Below, piece after piece: positions 14,566 through 60,499 of a stretch of DNA of 64,000 nt. The position numbers and the translations under genes are program-made. Each line of letters starts with the position of its first letter. Positions within the stretch are counted from its first letter, which is position 1. The notes beneath the pieces were generated by a model. It saw only the letters and a list, made by a program, of their open reading frames with translations, did no database searches and was not told where the DNA came from. The stretch is from Escherichia coli (GTDB lineage: Bacteria; Pseudomonadota; Gammaproteobacteria; Enterobacterales; Enterobacteriaceae), in the NCBI RefSeq assembly GCF_030013595.1, contig NZ_CP122768.1; one strand, 5' to 3'.

Positions 14566-14652
14566 GCCCGGATGGTGGAATCGGTAGACACAAGGGATTT
14601 AAAATCCCTCGGCGTTCGCGCTGTGCGGGTTCAAGTCCCGCTCCGGGTACCA
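14566..14652 (+). tRNA. leuZ: tRNA-Leu (TAA), long-variable-arm type; 3' part lies inside prophage attL
   Basis: GCCCGGATGGTGGAATCGGTAGACACAAGGGATTTAAAATCCC...GGTTCAAGTCCCGCTCCGGGTACCA read directly. Confidence 0.92.
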
Positions 14653-14722
14653 TGGGAAAGATGAGAATAAAATCAAAGCAATAAGCAGTGTCGTGAAACC
14701 ACCTTCGGGTGGTTTTTTTGTG
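14597..14722. repeat. Prophage attL: 126-bp direct repeat (3' 56 nt of tRNA-Leu plus downstream terminator)
   Basis: Same 126 bp at 60374..60499 with one mismatch (gatgaga vs gataaga); flanks differ on both sides. Confidence 0.85.
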
Positions 14723-14782: not shown

Positions 14783-15826
14783 TCATTTTCTCTGGCCACC
14801 AACTACGGGCACTACTTTAACTTTTCGGTCATATGCTGCTGTCTGTCGTGGGTTCTTATGCCCGGAAATTGCTTGCTTCTCTTCCAGGCTGCCTTCCAGA
14901 TCAGAGATACCTTTTGCTTTCAGATCATGAAATGTGAAGTCTATTTGCAGATGAGGATATTTTTCCTGTGCTGCCGCTTTGACATCACGCCAACGAGAGT
15001 TAAAACCATCACGGGTGTACTTGCCTCCGGTAGTTTGATGAATCACAAACAGGCTACTGATTCCCGGTTTTAATGGCAGAGAACGAGCCAGAGCTATCGC
15101 TTTCTGCAGACGAGGCGACCAGGCTTTGATTTGCTTAACGCCGGTTTTTCCCTGACGAATGTAGATCCCGGAATCGAACAGCTGGTCTTTCTGTAATGAA
15201 AGTACATCACTCTGTCTGGCCACACATAAGTAGGCAATCTCCATTGCCACGCGAACAACATCAGGAGACACTTCATAAACGGCCTGATATTCTTCATCCG
15301 TAATATAACGTTCGCGTGCTGTCTCTTTAAACTGCTTAACTCCCTGACAAGGATTCCTCTGGACATAACCTCGTTCATAACCCCAACGGAATACCCTGGA
15401 CATAAAGCTTTTTTCCCTATTTGCCTGAGTTCGGCTTGATAAACCGCGTTGATCCATATAGCGCCGAATATGTTCAGGTTTGATTTTATCCGGGTCGATC
15501 TTCCCGAAGACAGGCAGAACTTTTCCGGAATATTTTGTGTAGTCTTTCCTGGTTTCGACTGCCAAATCCATAAAATCAGGGGAGGTCATGAATTGTTCCG
15601 CGAGCGCCTGAAAAGTATTTCTTTCTTTTTCGTCACCGACCGCTTTTTCATATGCCAGCCATACGGCTGATCGTGGCGCATCCAATGCGCACAGGCGTAT
15701 CGCTTTGTTATCTTTATTCCTGAATTCGTAGGCCGCTTTGCCCTGGTAAACACGAGGCGGCATCCAGTTATCTGCTGGGTTCTTTCTCTTTCCGGCCATT
15801 AAATATTGCTCCAAAATCAGGTTCAT
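14783..15826 (-). CDS. int: Prophage tyrosine integrase
   Basis: 347-aa ORF next to attL/tRNA, opposite orientation; C-terminal region (...HDLKAKGISDLEG...SGHKNPRQTAAYDRK) resembles tyrosine-recombinase catalytic region. Confidence 0.85.
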   Translation of the reverse strand: MNLILEQYLMAGKRKNPADNWMPPRVYQGKAAYEFRNKDNKAIRLCALDAPRSAVWLAYEKAVGDEKERNTFQALAEQFMTSPDFMDLAVETRKDYTKYSGKVLPVFGKIDPDKIKPEHIRRYMDQRGLSSRTQANREKSFMSRVFRWGYERGYVQRNPCQGVKQFKETARERYITDEEYQAVYEVSPDVVRVAMEIAYLCVARQSDVLSLQKDQLFDSGIYIRQGKTGVKQIKAWSPRLQKAIALARSLPLKPGISSLFVIHQTTGGKYTRDGFNSRWRDVKAAAQEKYPHLQIDFTFHDLKAKGISDLEGSLEEKQAISGHKNPRQTAAYDRKVKVVPVVGGQRK

Positions 15827-16992: not shown

Positions 16993-19214
16993 GCTGTTTG
17001 CTCCTGTGCTGCGGTGAGGGCGGTGAGGCGTTCGGTTTTGATTTCATTCAAACGGCGCAGGCGCGAACCAAGATAAGTTGAATACTCCTTATCACCTTTG
17101 GATTCTGCGGCCTTGCGGTGAACTTCTACTTCCCGCGCAATAAGGCCATAGACTTTATTAACTTCATTGGGGGTTACGGCTGCAGCCAGTGTTTTGGCAA
17201 CACCTGAGAGTCGTTCATCCAGTTCTTCACGCAGTCGGGTAGCATCCTCTGCTTTCTCGCTTGCCTTCTTAATACTGTATTCTGTATTCAGCTCGGCGGT
17301 GTAGGCACTATCGTTATGCATATCCATATAAACATCTGCCGCAAATCCCAGATGAGATAGTGCTTTGACGGTGGCATCAGTAAGAGACTTTTTGGAGGCC
17401 TCTTTTTCCATTACCAGTGCCCCTTTGTTATTTTTTGATATGTAATCCGTGTGGCCATATGACGGAATAAATCCTTTCACTCCGTTCCAGATGTACCAGA
17501 GATCTATCCGGATGGTGTGTACTGACAGGCAGAACAGGGAACCGTCAGCATCCCTGACAGGTTTTTGTCCAATAATTTTCCCTGTCTGATCCTGTATAGG
17601 TTCAAGTAATGGCACACCGCGATCCACTCGCTCCTCCTTGATTTCAACTCCCCAACCAATGCCTTCCATTCCCAGCACTTCAGTCGCACGCATCAAAATA
17701 TATTGTGCGCGTATGGAGTGCAGTCCTGCACCGTAATCATTATGTGTGACATACGCAGGATCGGTCCGCTGAACGCGATTCCAGATAGCCAAATTTGCTT
17801 TGCTCTGGTCATCATTCATTGCTGACAGATAATGCTCCATGCGAATTGATGCAGTTTTTTCCTCGGCATGGGGCGGCTCAACCAGCGCGTCAACGTTCTG
17901 CACCAGGTCTTTTACCTGCTCGCTAAGTTTTTCTTGTGGAGGAGTCTCTTCTGCCGGGGTAATAGCTGCAGGTTCCCTCTGTGATACGGCGTTATTTTCA
18001 GGTACGTCATACACATGGCGAGGCGTGACAAACTGCTCACGCAACTGCTGCAAACTACGTTCTCCAGCATTTGCTGCTTCGCTTTTTTCGCCCTGATTTG
18101 AGGGTGTTTCTGACATCATTCCATCAATTGAGAATCGCCCGCCGCCGTGGTTGGTGACTTTTACATCATCCTTTGGTGCTGTTTCCTTTGGCTTCTCTTC
18201 AACAGCATTTGCATCACGCTGCCCGTTAGCTTGCAGCCAGTTGTCGATGTGACTGCGCAGGGATTGCGGGAAGTGGTACGTGTCTTTTGCGGGGGCGCTC
18301 TGAATAACACCGAATACTGATGCGCGGTCATAGGCAAGGATCTGATCCGTTGTGCGCAAGGCCATTGACCAGCGTTTAAAATCCTCCCGATCCTGGCTGA
18401 TTATTTCGTCTGCCGCTTTCAGGACGCTGGGGGTGATTTTTTCCGGGCCAACGGGTAACAGGGCGCAGGCAATTTCACGATCCAGTGTGGCGTGAGTCTG
18501 TTGGTAAGGACGTGCGGATGCTGTTTCTGGTTTTACCTCCGGCAGCATTTCATCGCGTTTACCGGGATTCTCTACCCATTTTTTTATAAATTTGGAGATA
18601 GTCCAACTGGTCGGGTTTTGTTCCTGGGTATCGCAACTTGCCAAAATTGCATGTACCAGATTATTCAATCCAGCAATATGCATGTACTCGATGGGCTTAC
18701 ACGCCACCATGGCATCAAGAACGATGCGGTTAAACGCGTCAACCTCATCCTCACTGTCAGTATCACTGTTGTCGAGCATCTCCAGGTATTCACGCGTCTG
18801 CGCAAGCAATTCACTGTCGACTTCGTTGGCGTCGTGGCTGAACAGCAGGACGGCGGCGAAGCGTTCACGAGCCGGCAGTTTCATCAGGTCGTTAACCTGT
18901 GCGATATCTGCTGAACCGCTATCTGAATCAGCGGGGGTGTTAACTACCCATTTTTCGCCATCAAAACTGTGTTCTGTGGCAAACGTCTCATCAAACTCAC
19001 CGACGCCAGGGCGCGGTTGGCCCGGGGCATCTTCCCAGATTTTAGGTTTGAAATAGTTGTCGCCGTGGTCAGGGTAGGCTTCCCACAATTTGCCGATGAT
19101 GATGTTCTCGGCAACTTTTTTGTTAGGGGCGTCGATGGCGATGGCCAGCGCCGGGATCGCGCCGTTTTTGAGCGCGCCTTTTTTCGCTTCTAACAAGCCG
19201 TTAAAGATGGTCAT
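16989..19214 (-). CDS. Large early protein with C-terminal Erf/Rad52-type single-strand annealing domain (tentative)
   Basis: 741-aa ORF, RBS GAGGAAAGACCA before ATG; C-terminal ...KEASKKSLTDATVKALSHLGFAADVY resembles the Erf signature; N-terminal ~450 aa acidic, unrecognised. Confidence 0.5.
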   Translation of the reverse strand: MTIFNGLLEAKKGALKNGAIPALAIAIDAPNKKVAENIIIGKLWEAYPDHGDNYFKPKIWEDAPGQPRPGVGEFDETFATEHSFDGEKWVVNTPADSDSGSADIAQVNDLMKLPARERFAAVLLFSHDANEVDSELLAQTREYLEMLDNSDTDSEDEVDAFNRIVLDAMVACKPIEYMHIAGLNNLVHAILASCDTQEQNPTSWTISKFIKKWVENPGKRDEMLPEVKPETASARPYQQTHATLDREIACALLPVGPEKITPSVLKAADEIISQDREDFKRWSMALRTTDQILAYDRASVFGVIQSAPAKDTYHFPQSLRSHIDNWLQANGQRDANAVEEKPKETAPKDDVKVTNHGGGRFSIDGMMSETPSNQGEKSEAANAGERSLQQLREQFVTPRHVYDVPENNAVSQREPAAITPAEETPPQEKLSEQVKDLVQNVDALVEPPHAEEKTASIRMEHYLSAMNDDQSKANLAIWNRVQRTDPAYVTHNDYGAGLHSIRAQYILMRATEVLGMEGIGWGVEIKEERVDRGVPLLEPIQDQTGKIIGQKPVRDADGSLFCLSVHTIRIDLWYIWNGVKGFIPSYGHTDYISKNNKGALVMEKEASKKSLTDATVKALSHLGFAADVYMDMHNDSAYTAELNTEYSIKKASEKAEDATRLREELDERLSGVAKTLAAAVTPNEVNKVYGLIAREVEVHRKAAESKGDKEYSTYLGSRLRRLNEIKTERLTALTAAQEQTA

Positions 19215-25949: not shown

Positions 25950-26207
25950 ATGCAGACTCAATTAAAGGTTAAAGGCGGTTATAGTCATTTTTTCTTCGCC
26001 AATATTGAAGTCTCACAAAGAGAGTCAAATGGCGGTTTGGTTGTCGTTAGGGATGTTAATATACCTATTACAACAACAACTCTCTCTCTGTTAGAGAATT
26101 ACGCTGTAGGGCAGGTGTTGACGTTAGAACAAAAGAATGGCGATTTTTTTGATGTGTATTACGTTGGAACTGATGGGAATAACTTTCAGTTTTCAACGCA
26201 CTGCTAA
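25950..26207 (+). CDS. Hypothetical AT-rich small protein (3' end lies in repeat copy A)
   Basis: 85-aa ORF with AAGGAG RBS; its last ~90 nt reappear degenerate at 31186.. Confidence 0.4.
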   Translation: MQTQLKVKGGYSHFFFANIEVSQRESNGGLVVVRDVNIPITTTTLSLLENYAVGQVLTLEQKNGDFFDVYYVGTDGNNFQFSTHC

Positions 26208-26350
26208 TTTATCAAGGCCCTGTGAGCAGGGCCTTCGAAAGCCTACTAAAGTCTGTTTCATAGAGAGAGTTATTTGCGATTAAAAAGGTATTTGGTCACG
26301 ACCAGCACGATAGAGAATACATCTTTCAAAGTACCGCCCATATAAAACAG
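26118..26350. repeat. Imperfect direct repeat, copy A (~230 bp)
   Basis: Roughly 80-85% identical by eye to 31186..31413 (ttgacgttagaacaaaa ... aaaaggtatttggtcacgacca). Confidence 0.7.
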
Positions 26351-26649
26351 TTACATATGCACTTGATGACTAAGCTGGCACCAGGTTAACACCATGCGCC
26401 AGCTTGAAGGAGACTTCAGTTATTGGTTTCTGAGGAAAGCGATTCTTGAAAGGGTCATTTGCGTCTGGCAGTCGACCATTTTCTTGACTTCAGCATCTGT
26501 TCCTTTCTTGACTTCAGCATCTGTTCCCTGCATTGAAACTTTACCGCACATAGCATCCTTAGTTTTGATCCACTGGCGCTGAGAAGGCAGCAACTTGAAC
26601 CGCCCCGGAAATCCTGGAGACTAAACTCCCTGAGAAAGAGGTAAACAGG

Positions 26650-26976
26650 ATGACTAAAAATACTCGTTTTTCCCCCGAAGTCCGTCAGCGGGCGATTCGT
26701 ATGGTTCTGGAAAGTCAGGATGAATATGACTCACAGTGGGCGGCAATTTGTTCCATTGCCCCAAAGATTGGCTGTACGCCGGAGACTCTGCGTGTCTGGG
26801 TTCGCCAGCATGAGCGGGATACCGGGGGCGGTGATGGTGGGCTCACCAGCGCTGAACGTCAGCGTCTGAAAGAGCTGGAACGTGAAAATCGTGAACTGCG
26901 CCGCAGTAACGATATCCTTCGCCAGGCTTCCGCTTATTTTGCGAAGGCGGAGTTCGACCGCCTCTGGAAAAAATGA
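26650..26976 (+). CDS. IS3-family transposase OrfA (HTH)
   Basis: [41 protein letters not shown]...; ends in AAAAAATGA frameshift window (A-run 26968-26973). Confidence 0.85.
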
Positions 26977-27863
26977 TGCCACTGCTGGATAAGCTGCGTG
27001 AGCAGTACGGGGTCGGACCGGTATGTAGCGAACTGCATATTGCCCCGTCAACGTATTACCATTGTCAGCAACAGCGACATCATCCGGATAAACGCAGTGC
27101 CCGTGCGCAGCACGATGACTGGCTGAAGAAAGAGATACAGCGCGTATACGATGAAAATCACCAGGTATACGGTGTGCGTAAAGTCTGGCGTCAGTTGTTA
27201 CGGGAAGGTATCAGAGTGGCCAGATGCACTGTGGCACGTCTCATGGCAGTTATGGGACTTGCCGGTGTTCTCCGGGGTAAAAAGGTCCGCACTACCGTCA
27301 GCCGGAAAGCCGTTGCCGCAGGCGACCGCGTAAACCGTCAGTTCGTGGCAGAACGACCTGACCAGCTGTGGGTGGCTGATTTTACTTACGTCAGCACATG
27401 GCAGGGCTTCGTCTATGTGGCGTTTATCATTGATGTGTTTGCCGGATACATCGTGGGGTGGCGGGTCTCATCGTCTATGGAAACGACATTCGTGCTGGAT
27501 GCGCTGGAGCAGGCGTTGTGGGCCCGTCGTCCGTCTGGCACCATCCATCACAGCGATAAAGGCTCTCAGTATGTGTCACTGGCCTATACGGAGCGACTAA
27601 AAGAAGCCGGATTACTGGCATCAACAGGGAGTACAGGCGACTCGTATGACAACGCGATGGCTGAGAGCATCAATGGTCTTTACAAAGCGGAGGTAATACA
27701 CCGTAAGAGCTGGAAAAAACGTGCAGAAGTGGAACTGGCCACACTAACGTGGGTGGACTGGTATAACAATCGACGATTGCTGGGAAGGCTGGGCCATACT
27801 CCTCCGGCAGAAGCAGAAAAAGCTTATTATGCTTCCATCGGAAACGATGATCTGGCAGCCTGA
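26973..27863 (+). CDS. IS3-family transposase OrfB (DDE catalytic domain), -1 frame relative to OrfA
   Basis: 296 aa with DDE integrase-core-like region (...[31 protein letters not shown]...[10 protein letters not shown]...[15 protein letters not shown]). Confidence 0.85.
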
Positions 27864-29436
27864 GTTCACAGATAAAACACTCTCCAGGAAACCCGGGGCG
27901 GTTCAACTCTTTTTTCTTCGCCGGGGTTAACTTGCTCCAGACGGTATTCAAATCAGAGTCAGCATTTGCAAATGCCATTCGGGACTGATCAAGGCTTTCA
28001 GATTTTTGCGGCTGAAGTTGTGCCTGCCTCTCTTTTTGCTTCTCCGCCTCATACCTGGCCTGTTCCTGTGCCCTGAGTTGCACCTGTTGTTCCGCTTCAA
28101 TTTGACTCTGTTGGGCATCCTTAGCCTGCTGGATTTTCTGCTGCTCAACGATCGGGTTGATAATGGAAAGCGATGTCAGTAAAGCGGCGCCCACTGATAT
28201 CGGATTATCAGAAGAGGTTTTTACAAAAACGTTTTTCTGATCGTCGGTCGCCTGCACGGTGTAGGTGATACGCCTTGAAAAGGCGTTTGCGTTGTTCTCC
28301 AAAAACAGATTTTCCATTTGCTTATCGAGATTACGATTAAAATTCTTTCTGTAAGCATCTGAAAGCTGGACGTACTCGTTCGCAGGTAGAGTCATCGTCA
28401 CGGTCCCTTCACAAGTTTTCATTGTGCTGCCCGTGTCACTTGATGTTGTGGAGATTTCAGAGACGGCTAGTTTGATCTTGTCCAGTGTGCTTCGTTTGGT
28501 CTGATTAGTGACATCAGGGTATTTATCGACCTGTTCAGAGAGTCCTTCATAAGCAGATTTTTTTAATAAATCCATGAGAGCTGATTGGGTCATTTCCGAA
28601 GAACAACCGATCTCATCTTTTTTGTTATCACAGCCTGTAAGGGCAATGGCGAGTAAGAGTACTGAGTATTTTAATCTCATGAATTCCCTTTAGAGTAAGG
28701 ATTGGTTTTTAAGACGCGGTCTGTAATCAGTTCCGAGAGCTACAGTAAACAACGCTGAGCACTGAACGCATCACAGGCAAGGTAAAAGGTGATATCGGCA
28801 AAGGCTGTGAAACCTTTAATTCAACAGATGGGAACGGTATGCACAGGATCCTGTAACGACGCTCCCAAAACTGGAAACCTGTAAGGCATGTTTTCGCTGC
28901 TGAACTTAATATACGAACCTGCACTATCATGAACATATTTTATATCGTTATACCCCGAGTGATTGTGCCCGGCAATGGATAGTGTCCTGGAGGAATTATT
29001 TCTAATGTAAAAGGAAGATATTTAATTTCGATGTGGGATTATTACCTGTCTATAAGAACAATGACTTTATCTGGCAGTAAGCAGACATCTATTAGCTTAC
29101 TGAAGGGGGGCTGTGATTTGACCATTAACGGCATGAGATATATTGTCTATTGGTGATTGTTCTGAGGCCGATATCACGTTAACGACCAAGTAAAATAACA
29201 TGAAAAATTATTTATTAATGATTGCCAGCATTAAATGTAGTGATACCTCATTAGCAGGGTGCTCCGCAATGACTGCGATGAACTAAAAAATCAGTCATAA
29301 CCATGAAAAAAACAAGTGTATCAGCGAAATTAAATCTGGTGAAAGCATTTAATTACTTGTTAATGACGCAATAAAAACATACTATGGAAATGTAACAGCT
29401 AATCTACAGTTCTTGTCAATAGGGGCGCACAAGAAA

Positions 29437-30027
29437 ATGTTAAATGAATTTAAGGAAAAGCTACTATCCGACGATATCCGCGATGTCTACCAACGATACC
29501 TTTTAGGACATGACATCTGGTATTTTCGGGAACAAAAAAAATCAATAACCTTTGCTAAAGATTATGATGAGTTTAAGCTATATATGTCTAAGAAGCTTGA
29601 AATTCATGTAAATAATATTGCAATTGTTGGAAGTGCTAAGATGGGATTCAGCTTGAGCCCTGATAAAAATTATCGAACATTTAACGATGAGTCAGATATA
29701 GACTTGGTTTTAGTATCCGACAGAATTTATAAATCTTCCTGGATGGCATTTATTGAATTACAATCAAAGAATTATTTGCCTGTATATGCTCCTGTAGCTA
29801 AAAATATTTTCAAAGGATTCGTGTCATTGAAGGAGTTAGATATTAGAGTCGATTTTTTTAATAAATGGTCCCGTAACGTTGAACCATTAAAAAAAGACAT
29901 TCAAACTATTTTTGGAATACCTAACGACATCAACTACAGAATTTATGACTCTTGGGAGTCCGTTGAACGCTATCACATAGCTGGGTTGAATAGTCTAAAA
30001 GATAAGTTACAAGGACAATTGATATGA
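29437..30027 (+). CDS. Nucleotidyltransferase-fold protein (Pol-beta superfamily signature), function unknown
   Basis: IAIVGSAKMGFSLSPDKNYRTFNDESDIDLVLVSD = hG[GS]...[DE]hDh motif; AT-rich; stop overlaps next start (ATGA); track ORF begins at TTG 29413. Confidence 0.5.
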   Translation: MLNEFKEKLLSDDIRDVYQRYLLGHDIWYFREQKKSITFAKDYDEFKLYMSKKLEIHVNNIAIVGSAKMGFSLSPDKNYRTFNDESDIDLVLVSDRIYKSSWMAFIELQSKNYLPVYAPVAKNIFKGFVSLKELDIRVDFFNKWSRNVEPLKKDIQTIFGIPNDINYRIYDSWESVERYHIAGLNSLKDKLQGQLI

Positions 30028-31082
30028 GAGCTATTGATCTAATTAAAGTTGAATCGAAAGACATTAAATGGTTGACGGATAATTTGAAATCAGGTGTTAT
30101 TACAGTTGATAATTCATATCAGAGAAAATATATCTGGCAGCAAAAAGACCAAGTGGCCTTAATTGAGACAATATTAATTGGCTACCCAATCCCTGAGATT
30201 TACCTTTGGGCAAATAATACTGATCCTGACACTGGAGATACTAAATATTCAATTGTAGATGGACAGCAAAGGCTAACCACAATCCAGCGATATTTAAATG
30301 ATGAGTTTAAGTTAAGCAAAGCAGCTATAGATGATAAAGAAGCCGACTATAGTGGGAAAATTTTTTCAGAATTGTCGGCAGATAACAAACGTGATTTTTG
30401 GCGATACCAATTCTCATCCAGATTTATTAATGAATCATTGAGATATGATGAGATTGCAAAGTTATTTTTACGTCTAAATAGAACAAATACTACGTTAAAT
30501 CCTCAAGAACTTCGTAATGCTGAATTTAATGGCGAGTTTTTAAGATTAGCCGAAGAAATTGCACAAAATGAATTTTGGGATAATTATAAGATATTTACTC
30601 AGTCAGATATCCGTCGGATGCAAGACATTCAATTCATCAGCACATTATTGATTTTCTTACGAATGGGTATTGAGCAGGATAATACACAAAAATCAATTAA
30701 TCGAGTGTATGATCAATACAATGAGAATTACCCTGAGGCGACTGAGGACAGAATTATCTTTAACGAAGTGTTAAGGATCATATCTCAAATTATCAACAAT
30801 AAACAAGTATTAGAATCAGTTGTAAAGAAAAAAGGCCATTTGTATTTTATATTTGTGCTGGCATACTATTATTTACAGCTTAGTAAATCTAAGCTTGTTG
30901 ATATGAATGTTATTAGTTCAAAGCTCGAGGATTTTTTTAATATTTATGAGTTAAATGAACAAGATAACCCCCATCCACTGGTTGAGGAATATAGATTCCT
31001 CAGCCAAGAGGGTTCAAAGAAGAGTCATAACAGACAGCGTAGATTTGATATTTTGAAAGAATTTTGCTCTTTACATGATTAA
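30024..31082 (+). CDS. DUF262 / ParB-like protein (GmrS-type N-domain only, no DUF1524/HNH half)
   Basis: YQRKYIW...IVDGQQRLTTI and ...LNRTNTTLNPQELRNAEF motifs typical of DUF262; 352 aa; AT-rich. Confidence 0.6.
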   Translation: MRAIDLIKVESKDIKWLTDNLKSGVITVDNSYQRKYIWQQKDQVALIETILIGYPIPEIYLWANNTDPDTGDTKYSIVDGQQRLTTIQRYLNDEFKLSKAAIDDKEADYSGKIFSELSADNKRDFWRYQFSSRFINESLRYDEIAKLFLRLNRTNTTLNPQELRNAEFNGEFLRLAEEIAQNEFWDNYKIFTQSDIRRMQDIQFISTLLIFLRMGIEQDNTQKSINRVYDQYNENYPEATEDRIIFNEVLRIISQIINNKQVLESVVKKKGHLYFIFVLAYYYLQLSKSKLVDMNVISSKLEDFFNIYELNEQDNPHPLVEEYRFLSQEGSKKSHNRQRRFDILKEFCSLHD

Positions 31083-31185
31083 ATGACGAAAGTGGGTTGT
31101 TTATAAGAATTGAATAAACAACCCATCATTTTAATGTACTCTGAATCCTCTCATTCTTAGTGAAATATTGTTTTTAGAACACGTA

Positions 31186-31413
31186 TTGACGTTAGAACAA
31201 AAAATAGATTTTTTTGTGATGTATTACGTTGGAGTTGATGGGATAATTATATGTTTTCAATACATTGTTAATTTATCAAGACCCTGCGACTAAGGTGTTC
31301 GAAAATCGACTAAAGTCTGTTTCATAGAGAGAGTTACTTGCGTTTAAAAAGGTATTTGGTCACGACCAACACGAGGCCGAATACCTCAGTTTAAGTACCG
31401 CTCATGTACAACA
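31186..31413. repeat. Imperfect direct repeat, copy B (~230 bp)
   Basis: Degenerate duplicate of 26118..26350, including a decayed copy of the 3' end of the 25950..26207 gene. Confidence 0.7.
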
Positions 31414-31603
31414 GTAACGTTTGCTGATAGTGTCGCATTATCTTGCAGAGGACGCAGGTTAAATAGAACAAGCATATGTACCTGGTTTTTGTAATATTGG
31501 GTATAACATATGCTTTATAGGAGCGCGCTCAATGACCAACCGAGAAAGAATCTCCTGACAGATACAGTTATTTTCACCCTCTCCATAACATAAGGGAGTT
31601 TTT

Positions 31604-39632: not shown

Positions 39633-40199
39633 ATGGCAAGTCAGGCTGAGGTCGCAGCACATTTACTGCTATCTGATCGTCGTCTGCGCGATCTTGCAAA
39701 ACTTCCGGGAGCTCCAGTCCCCCAAGGACGTGGCGATTGGGAACTTGACGCATGGCGCCATTTTTATATTCGTTATCTCCGGAGCAATAGACGCGACACA
39801 ACTAGTAATGACGAACCGGAAGCGGGGGACAATTCTCCCGAAAAAAATCGCGAGCAGTGGTTGAAAAATGAGGAACGGCAGGAGCGAATCCTGATGGCTC
39901 GCGTGAAACGCCGCATTCTTGCTAAACGCTACGCGCCAATTGAATTAATCAGCGTAGCTGTATCTCGCGTCGCAGTTGAATTACGTACCCGTGTCGAATC
40001 GTGGCCACCACGGTTAAAAAAGGTGTGGCCGGAAATGCCGCAGGAGGCGAGCAGTGTATTACGAGAGGAGCTGGCAATAGCCCTGAATGAACTGGCAGAC
40101 ATACGAATCGACTTCAGCGATTACGATGTCAGCGATATCGAACGCGATCTCGACAGGGTTGAATCCCTTGCGCGTGACGATACCGATGACGGGGGTTGA
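39633..40199 (+). CDS. Terminase small subunit (Nu1-like)
   Basis: 188-aa ORF immediately upstream of and overlapping the large terminase. Confidence 0.5.
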   Translation: MASQAEVAAHLLLSDRRLRDLAKLPGAPVPQGRGDWELDAWRHFYIRYLRSNRRDTTSNDEPEAGDNSPEKNREQWLKNEERQERILMARVKRRILAKRYAPIELISVAVSRVAVELRTRVESWPPRLKKVWPEMPQEASSVLREELAIALNELADIRIDFSDYDVSDIERDLDRVESLARDDTDDGG

Positions 40200-42048
40200 G
40201 TGGGCTGATAAACATTTTTATCTTCCCGAAGGCTCAAGCCATATTGCTGGCCACTGGACGACTCAGCCGGTCCAGGTAGTGATGTTAAATATGATGACGA
40301 ACGACGCGATAAAAATCGTGTCTGTTCGCAAATCAGCTCGTCTCGGTTATACAAAAATACTCGTCGCGGCGCTGCTCTATTTCGCTGAGCACAAAAAACG
40401 TAGTGCCGTGGTCTATCAGCCTATCGATGACGAATCGGATGGATTTGTCGCCGACGAGGTTGACCCCGCTATCGCCGAAATGCCGGTGATTCAGAAAATT
40501 TTCCCCGACTGGGATAAAAGCAACGAGCGTAACAATCTCCAGCGTAAAGAGATGAACGGGGCGATTATCGATTTTCGTGGCGCGAGTGCACCAGGAAATT
40601 TCCGGCGACTGACGAAACAGGTTGTCGAGGGTGACGAAGTCGACGGCTGGCCGCTGGAGGTTGCAAAAAAAGGCAAGGGCGAGGGCTCGCCCATCGAGCT
40701 GGCGCTCGTTCGAATTAAAGGTGCAGCGTACCCAAAAGCAATTTTCGGTTCGACGCCGACCGTTACCGGCAAAAGCCATATAGAAATGTTGGAAGACGCG
40801 GCTGATCTGACGTTTCGTTTTTACCTGAAGTGTCCGCATTGTGGCGAGGAGCAGGTCCTGGTATTTGGTTTCGACGGTATCGAATACGGTCTCAAGTGGG
40901 ATGACAGCCTGCAGACCAACGAGTCGAAATCGTCGTCCGCGTATTACCAGTGCTGCCACTGCCCGGAGCATTTTTACTATCGCGATCTCGAAAAAATGGA
41001 GCTCGCGGGGCGCTGGATAGCAGAGGACTGCACCTAGACGCGGGACGGCATTCATTTTTTTGATCACGACGGTGGTGTCGTTCGCGCGCCGAAACACGCG
41101 GCGATCGTGATAAACGCCCTGTATTCACTGAATCTCGACGGCTGGGGCGAGATTGTCAGCGAGTGGCTGAAAGCGAAAGGCGACCCACTCAAAGAAAAAA
41201 CGTTTCATAACACGACGCTCGGCGAGCTCTGGAGCGACGTGGCCAGCGAGCAGCTGGAGCACGATATTCTCGTTAATCGCCGGGAAAAATACGCCAGCCA
41301 GGTTCCTGACGGTGTTGTTTATATAACCGGCGGCATCGACTCTCAGACGTCCGGGCGCTACGAGTGTTACGTGTGGGGCTGGGGATCTGAGGAGGAGTGT
41401 TGGCTGATTGATAAAACAATCGTCCTCGGTCGCTACGACGAGGAGGACACGCTGCAGCGCGTCGACGGAGTGATTCGTAAACAATACCAGCGCAGCGACG
41501 GGACCACAATCGGCGTCAGTCGTTGGGCGTGGGATACCGGTGGTATAGACGCGCAGGTCGTTTATAACCGCTCGCTCAAACTCGGTCCGCTGTGGGTCAT
41601 TCCGATCAAAGGCGCGAGCTCATACGGCCAGCCGGTCGTAAATATGCCGCGTACCCGTAACGCGAATAAAGTTTATTTATCGTTAATCGGTACTGATACG
41701 GCAAAAGATTTGCTCGCGATGCGTCTGCCGCTGGAACCCGACCCTAAATCGGCGACACCGGGCGCAATTCATTTTCCCAACGACGATGAAATATTCGGCA
41801 CGACAGAGGCAAAACAGCTCGTCTCCGAAGTTCTGATCCCAAAACTCATTAACGGTCGCGTCGTTTATCGCTGGGACAATCAGGGCCGGCGAAATGAAGC
41901 GCTCGACTGCTGGGTGTACGGACTGGCGGCGCTGCGTATCAGTAAAATTCGTTTTCAGCTCAATCTCGAGACGCTCGCTGAGCAACGGAAAAAATCACAA
42001 AACAAACTGTCTCTCGAGGAGATGGCCAGAATGCTCGGAGGGAGCTAA
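40186..42048 (+). pseudogene. Terminase large subunit (lambda gpA-like) with in-frame amber codon at 41035..41037
   Basis: VEWADKHFYLPE..., CPHCGEEQ, ...TRDG..., GIDSQ, WGWG, NEALDC all align to lambda gpA as I recall it; TAG sits where gpA has Trp (IW-TRDG); reading continues in same frame; start ambiguous (40087 or 40186). Confidence 0.75.
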
Positions 42049-60373: not shown

Positions 60374-60499
60374 ATTTAAAATCCCTCGGCGTTCGCGCTG
60401 TGCGGGTTCAAGTCCCGCTCCGGGTACCATGGGAAAGATAAGAATAAAATCAAAGCAATAAGCAGTGTCGTGAAACCACCTTCGGGTGGTTTTTTTGTG
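60374..60499. repeat. Prophage attR: second copy of 126-bp repeat (includes 3' 56 nt of tRNA-Leu, 60374..60429)
   Basis: Identical to 14597..14722 except one base. Confidence 0.85.

Follow-up and report, generated by a model that had tools for sequence, protein, structure and literature searches.

An IS629/IS1203 insertion in a prophage lipoprotein gene of Escherichia coli

A stretch of 64,000 nucleotides of the Escherichia coli contig NZ_CP122768.1 (assembly GCF_030013595.1), in the following called the window, carries a prophage in which a lipoprotein gene on the minus strand runs into an apparent insertion sequence (IS). The locus raises the question of whether one complete mobile element has split one gene here, when this took place, and what it has done to the gene and its neighbours. 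The original prediction, made from the sequence alone, was an IS629-like element of the IS3 family that had disrupted the gene cleanly and probably recently. We found that the gene, which in its disrupted form covers 26420..28680 on the minus strand, is split by the IS at codon 259 of 315, and we regard it as nearly certain that an intact IS629/IS1203 copy transposed into this codon and duplicated the triplet ACT.

The element and its ends

Reading of the sequence, together with a script, placed a complete IS3-family insertion sequence of the IS629/IS1203 group at 26596..27905 (1,310 bp), with its transposase genes on the plus strand. The sequence TGAACCGCCCCGG begins at 26596 and its reverse complement finishes at 27905, which are the positions where inverted repeats had been predicted. 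A repeat search and the script delimited a left inverted repeat at 26596..26620, starting with 5'-TG, and a right one at 27881..27905, ending with CA-3' (both plus strand). When the left repeat is compared with the complement of the right one, 22 of the 25 positions are identical, and the outermost 13 nt, those of TGAACCGCCCCGG, are perfect. An inverted-repeat finder gave arms of 26 nt with 88% complementarity, a figure which includes one chance-complementary flank base per arm. The termini read TGAACC...GGTTCA, and the length and the imperfect TG/CA repeats are those of IS3-family elements (about 1.2–1.55 kb).

The element is flanked by ACT on the left (26593..26595) and by ACT on the right (27906..27908), as both sequence reading and script showed, and the predicted 3-bp duplication is thereby borne out, as the empty sites L001 (in strain HCP5S3_I2) and L003 have the triplet only once. 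A direct target duplication of 3–4 bp is what IS3-family elements produce. A duplication of 4 bp was rejected because the fourth bases outward disagree (AACT versus ACTC). We also considered a target that resembles the IS ends, as there is a CCGGGG hexamer 15 nt to the right of the insertion, and rejected it since two other examined sites had no common pattern. The window contains the element only once.

Two genes were found inside the element. The first, orfA (26650..26976, plus strand), encodes 108 amino acids with a helix-turn-helix (HTH) DNA-binding domain (Pfam HTH_Tnp_1, 47 bits) and leucine heptads at L76/L83/L90, and the second, orfB (26973..27863, plus strand), encodes 296 amino acids with a DDE (rve) catalytic domain (Pfam rve, 97 bits; HTH_21, 68 bits; also rve_3). 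The OrfB residues D136, D195 and E231 have DD(35)E spacing, and K238 lies seven residues past E231. The frame of orfB is −1 relative to orfA, and the overlap covers the orfA stop in TGG AAA AAA TGA. The run of six A in this motif (26968..26973, plus strand), read from the sequence, would be the slippery run, the precise position of the slip being one that we infer. It is spanned by an ALIL pseudoknot (Rfam RF01497) at 26931..27047 on the plus strand, the RNA structure that stimulates frameshifting in IS3-family elements; the match covers the full model (1–117) with 119.2 bits against a gathering score of 50 (E = 8.6e-32). The predicted fused OrfAB protein of 404 amino acids scores 366 bits on the NCBIfam model NF033516 (transpos_IS3; cut-off 160), and its length is the one implied by the joined 'programmed frameshift' coding sequence (CDS) that PGAP annotates in other copies. 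Judged from the sequence, the overlapping orfA and orfB in 0/−1 frames, the A-rich slip site and the downstream RNA structure would be the expression signals of an IS3-family element; the proteins have the corresponding features, with the HTH in OrfA and, in OrfB, an RNase-H-fold DDE domain that has DD(35)E spacing and, seven residues beyond the glutamate, a lysine. The copy is intact and potentially active. It would make either OrfA alone or the OrfAB transposase, the latter when the ribosome shifts by −1 on the A6 run under the influence of the pseudoknot, and it would move by copy-out-paste-in via a circular intermediate. For IS629 the −1 frameshift between orfA and orfB, the formation of circles and the copy-out-paste-in movement have been described (Chandler and colleagues, bioRxiv 10.1101/2023.06.07.543989).

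A megablast search of 5,426 complete E. coli genomes, the comparison set used throughout, returned end-to-end matches to the 1,310-bp element in 4,483 records. The top matches, 99.9% identical, were in the porcine strains UMNF18 and O139:H1 W13-16, where the copies are annotated as 'IS3-like element IS1203 family transposase' and 'AL1L pseudoknot'. A chromosomal copy in O157:H7 is identical at 1295/1310 positions (98.9%), has a 3-bp target duplication, ATT, and carries the PGAP name 'IS3-like element IS1203 family'; with the transpos_IS3 and ALIL scores this identity supports the assignment to an IS629-like element of the IS3 family. The sequence variant in the window is uncommon, as a copy at least 99% identical was found in just 22 of the 7,006 matching records, several of them from pigs.

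IS1203 is an isoform of IS629, the O157:H7 copies have been described as IS629/IS1203 subtypes, the subtypes diverge from one another by 4–5%, and IS629 duplicates 3–4 bp of its target (PMC3271280). Known IS629/IS1203 elements of E. coli and Shigella (isoforms IS1203v and IS3411) have the same length of 1,310 bp, the same TGAACCGCCCCGG ends and the same orfA of 108 and orfB of 296 amino acids as the element described here. The likeness extends to the 0/−1 frames, the ALIL pseudoknot, the DD(35)E triad, the 3-bp duplication and the 98.9–99.9% identity to copies annotated as IS1203 family. In O157, 62% of the IS629 copies lie within prophages, a bias that the location found here matches (PMC3271280). 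We observed no structural difference from IS629/IS1203; the insertion site was not seen in other complete genomes.

The interrupted gene and its empty site

The 5' fragment of the lipoprotein gene (27906..28680, minus strand) starts with the ATG at 28680 and contains codons 1–258 and the first base of codon 259. As predicted, the ORF (open reading frame) then continues into the IS, where it reads 78 non-native codons antisense to the element (27670..27905, minus strand) until a stop at 27670–27672, and the resulting chimeric ORF at 27670..28680 has 336 amino acids, 258 of them native. The 3' fragment (26420..26595, minus strand) holds codons 259–315 and the TAA; it encodes Cys274, Cys300 and the greater part of the LprI domain PF07007. 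When the IS and one ACT were removed in silico by script, a minus-strand ORF of 315 codons was obtained, from the ATG at 28680 to the TAA at 26420–26422, one residue different from the annotated protein WP_112024906.1. The prediction that this excision restores the frame to that stop was thus right, whereas its estimate of about 53 further codons was not, the restored tail being 57 codons long (residues 259–315). If the IS alone or the IS and 4 bp are excised the frame is broken, with stops at codon 258 or 303. The end-to-end alignments, which reach 99.9% both for annotated IS copies, found in thousands of E. coli records, and for the empty locus, exclude chance.

The empty site was found in other strains. 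The excised sequence of 1,188 nt matched HCP5S3_I2 and LCP30S3_I5 (NZ_CM149870.1 and NZ_CM149862.1; pig faeces) in one piece, end to end and with 99.9% identity. In HCP5S3_I2 the gene is a PGAP CDS of 948 nt (WP_112024906.1, 315 amino acids) whose ends map exactly onto 28680 and 26420 of the window. The two alleles differ by 1 nt in the 1,188 nt, giving E29D, and in the 3' fragment the sequence is identical to that of the intact allele. Matches over at least 80% of the excised length were present in 438 genomes, always as a single CDS annotated 'lysozyme inhibitor LprI family protein'. The uninterrupted alleles include ones that are only 96% identical (E24377A and SE11), and that of E24377A (WP_001237643.1, 307 amino acids) continues across the insertion site. 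For queries made from the left and the right junction, none of the complete genomes reached a coverage of 80%, and the 336-residue chimeric ORF had no entry in the public-assembly index. The insertion is specific to the lineage of the source strain and, as neither junction occurs in the 5,426 genomes, probably recent, which agrees with the clean and probably recent disruption first proposed. It would have occurred in that lineage after the divergence from a nearly identical prophage with an intact gene.

The product of the restored gene is a predicted bacterial lipoprotein. Its signal peptide, read by eye, is MRLKYSVLLLAIALTG followed by Cys17, with the lipobox LTGC, which agrees with the pattern [LVI][ASTVI][GAS]C, and Asp18 at position +2. 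By the +2 rule an Asp at this position predicts that a lipoprotein is retained in the inner membrane. PF07007 (LprI/DUF1311) matches residues 230–312 with 34.9 bits (cut-off 22), and the cysteines outside the lipobox, C26, C90, C274 and C300, have a 2 + 2 layout in which Cys274 and Cys300 lie inside PF07007. The N-terminal ~210 residues had no match to Pfam, NCBIfam or PDB sequences; for the protein as a whole, NCBIfam and PADLOC gave no family and the PDB sequence search only noise (E > 0.3). Full-length homologues of the reconstructed protein exist, as the prediction of a single interrupted gene would have it: WP_112024906.1, WP_001237643.1 and the profile phrog_5094 (unknown function), which is covered completely (1–272 of 272, 602 bits). 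A tblastn search found no homologue among 50,697 deposited phage records/genomes, and with the phrog_5094 match in mind the members of that profile are presumably prophage-derived, the gene being seemingly undocumented in sequenced virions. The gene was observed on 585 of the 5,426 E. coli chromosomes, and judged by these searches it appears to be confined to prophages.

A perfect 24-bp tandem duplication, giving GTDAEVKK twice, was seen at 26480..26527 in the LprI-domain region of the 3' fragment. It is common to the HCP5S3_I2 allele (315 amino acids) and missing in the E24377A allele (307 amino acids), and it is a feature of the allele that was not caused by the IS.

The outcome of the insertion would be a truncated lipoprotein with 258 native residues and a nonsense tail of 78. 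The cut at codon 259 costs the protein Cys274, Cys300 and roughly two thirds of its C-terminal LprI/DUF1311 domain; a product that lacks two of the four conserved cysteines and the greater part of the domain is probably non-functional. In ScwA, an LprI-domain protein of Salmonella, the conserved C30, C100, C237 and C259 reportedly form two disulfides that pair the N- and C-terminal parts, and their mutation destabilises the protein (PMC7933661). The lipoprotein described here resembles ScwA in the four cysteines in a 2 + 2 layout, in PF07007 and in the envelope location given by its signal peptide, whereas ScwA is soluble and periplasmic and our protein, with Asp at +2, is predicted to stay at the inner membrane. 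No lysozyme phenotype was found for ScwA, the LprI domain itself is not known to inhibit lysozyme, and the inhibition by M. tuberculosis LprI has been ascribed to its MliC domain (PMC7933661), a domain which the lipoprotein described here lacks. DUF1311 proteins have been tied to the control of peptidoglycan enzymes (ScwA; PMC7933661), and, through Etsi4, to immunity against periplasmic effectors of the type VI secretion system (PMC12981562). As a guess of low confidence, the intact lipoprotein may act in the envelope by binding a peptidoglycan hydrolase or holding it in check.

Other explanations of the locus

The same arrangement could in principle have arisen in other ways. An ancestral insertion, with the intact allele in HCP5S3_I2 and other strains produced by precise excision that restored the target, would have a documented mechanism, since IS629/IS1203v excises precisely with the help of the transposase and the IS-excision enhancer IEE (bioRxiv 10.1101/2023.06.07.543989), and the intact duplication would permit it. 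It would demand that at least 438 genomes with an uninterrupted gene, some with alleles only 96% identical (E24377A, SE11), had lost the element, while neither junction was seen in any complete genome; one insertion accounts for this far more parsimoniously than repeated excision would, and we find the ancestral scenario scarcely credible. An IS misplaced by the assembly, through collapse of a multicopy repeat and with no true insertion, is just as improbable. Many E. coli genomes carry several IS629-type copies, with a median of 4 places per genome, and such elements often confound assemblies; here the boundaries are exact and a triplet that is single in the empty site is perfectly duplicated, whereas a misjoin would yield neither a target duplication nor a frame that can be recovered by excision. 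Some points do weigh against a recent and inactivating IS629/IS1203 insertion. An assembly error keeps a small formal probability, the sequence being known from the assembly. The name IS629/IS1203 would follow from PGAP-annotated proxies and the isoform statement in the literature, not from the ISfinder references of IS629 (Shigella sonnei) and IS1203 (E. coli O111:H-). The truncated lipoprotein is most likely unstable or inactive, where the loss of function, like any effect on fitness, is something we infer from the comparisons above. Finally, 'recent' is relative and means after the split from HCP5S3_I2, whose prophage differs by ~0.08%; it gives no absolute date.

A different possibility is that the insertion acts on its neighbours. 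Beside the lipoprotein gene there is a two-gene operon (29413..31082), presumably the 'candidate system' which the original prediction placed next to the insertion. Its first gene (29413..30027, plus strand) encodes 204 amino acids matching only phrog_32008, with no Pfam or PADLOC match, and its stop overlaps the start of the second (30024..31082, plus strand), which encodes a GmrSD_N/DUF262 protein of 352 amino acids (PADLOC NsnA, 139 bits; PD-T4-2_A, 68 bits). Activation of neighbouring genes by an IS is a known phenomenon, and the insertion could be a functional rewiring in which transcription from the right end of the IS, running antisense through the gene remnant, alters the operon. The geometry permits such read-out, as the operon shares the plus strand with the transposase genes at a distance of 1.5 kb, and a scan found no plus-strand terminator-like site between orfB and 28112. 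What argues against it is that a promoter scan for an outward promoter at the right end of the IS gave no consensus match, that a promoter-like site belonging to the operon itself lies at 29118–29146, and that a plus-strand terminator-like hairpin at 28112–28128 lies in the path of read-out. We give rewiring only a small chance. A broader version has a smaller one still: here the IS would knock out an inner-membrane LprI-domain lipoprotein moron while its transcription alters the GmrSD_N/NsnA-like operon between two ~240-bp repeats, and IS629 would be remodelling a prophage defence hotspot that was also struck independently in the sister strain, by an IS after the DUF262 gene. Transposition of an intact copy into codon 259 is the reading we retain.

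The prophage, its sister and what the insertion means

The prophage is ~46 kb long and sits at tRNA-Leu(taa), flanked by pgsA-glyW-cysT-leuZ on one side and, past its right end, by yecA. Its attachment sites attL and attR are direct repeats of 126 bp with one mismatch (14597..14722 and 60374..60499), and a minus-strand integrase gene occupies 14783..15826. The early, lysis and head genes of the prophage are lambda-like, whereas its tail module is of the contractile, P2-like type. The lipoprotein gene lies between the replication module, with its replicative helicase, and the antiterminator Q, in the orientation opposite to the early genes, a position and orientation that are usual for a moron. 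With this module context in a tRNA-Leu prophage and with the lipobox LTGC, the label 'prophage lipoprotein gene' given in the original prediction is accurate.

HCP5S3_I2 is collinear with all 64 kb of the window at 99.9% identity or more, apart from five insertion sequences; the two strains differ by five IS events and ~0.08% point divergence. The IS629/IS1203 copy at 26596..27905 is the only one of the five present in the window; the other four are found only in HCP5S3_I2. One of these is an IS629-type copy (L001 2304..3613) in the gene of a 741-residue exonuclease, equivalent to ~17913..17918 of the window, with the target duplication TACC; it is 95.3% identical to the window copy and is of a different subtype. 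Another is an IS3-family element (L001 15573..16901) directly after the DUF262 gene, equivalent to ~31178..31184. The remaining two are copies of ISVsa5, one in yecU and one in terL. In the window, terL, the gene of the prophage's large terminase, is read as two ORFs (40087..41037 and 41107..42048), with an in-frame amber TAG at 41035..41037 between the ATPase and nuclease domains, and HCP5S3_I2 has TGG (Trp) at this codon in the gene that ISVsa5 interrupts. This packaging gene has thus been inactivated independently in the two sister prophages.

The lipoprotein gene and the two-gene operon are bracketed by a direct repeat of ~240 bp, ~81% identical, at 26112..26360 and 31180..31424. Each repeat consists of the 3' end of an ORF of 85 amino acids, as at 25950..26207, and the downstream spacer with a hairpin, and the segment between them is ~3.75 kb without the IS. 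In E24377A only the distal ~90 bp of the repeat are present, by the lipoprotein gene, and the other neighbours are different (HNH, GIY-YIG). The arrangement suggests that the bracketed segment is a cassette exchanged by recombination.

The event is an ordinary one for IS629/IS1203, an already known element acting as documented, and its value is that of a lineage marker and of a correction to the annotation. As a clean marker specific to the strain, the insertion is suited to typing by polymerase chain reaction across the site, and the 336-residue ORF at 27670..28680 is better annotated as a pseudogene than as a protein. For studies of the operon at 29413..31082 it means that this strain can do without the adjoining lipoprotein, and that HCP5S3_I2 offers a natural comparison without the IS.

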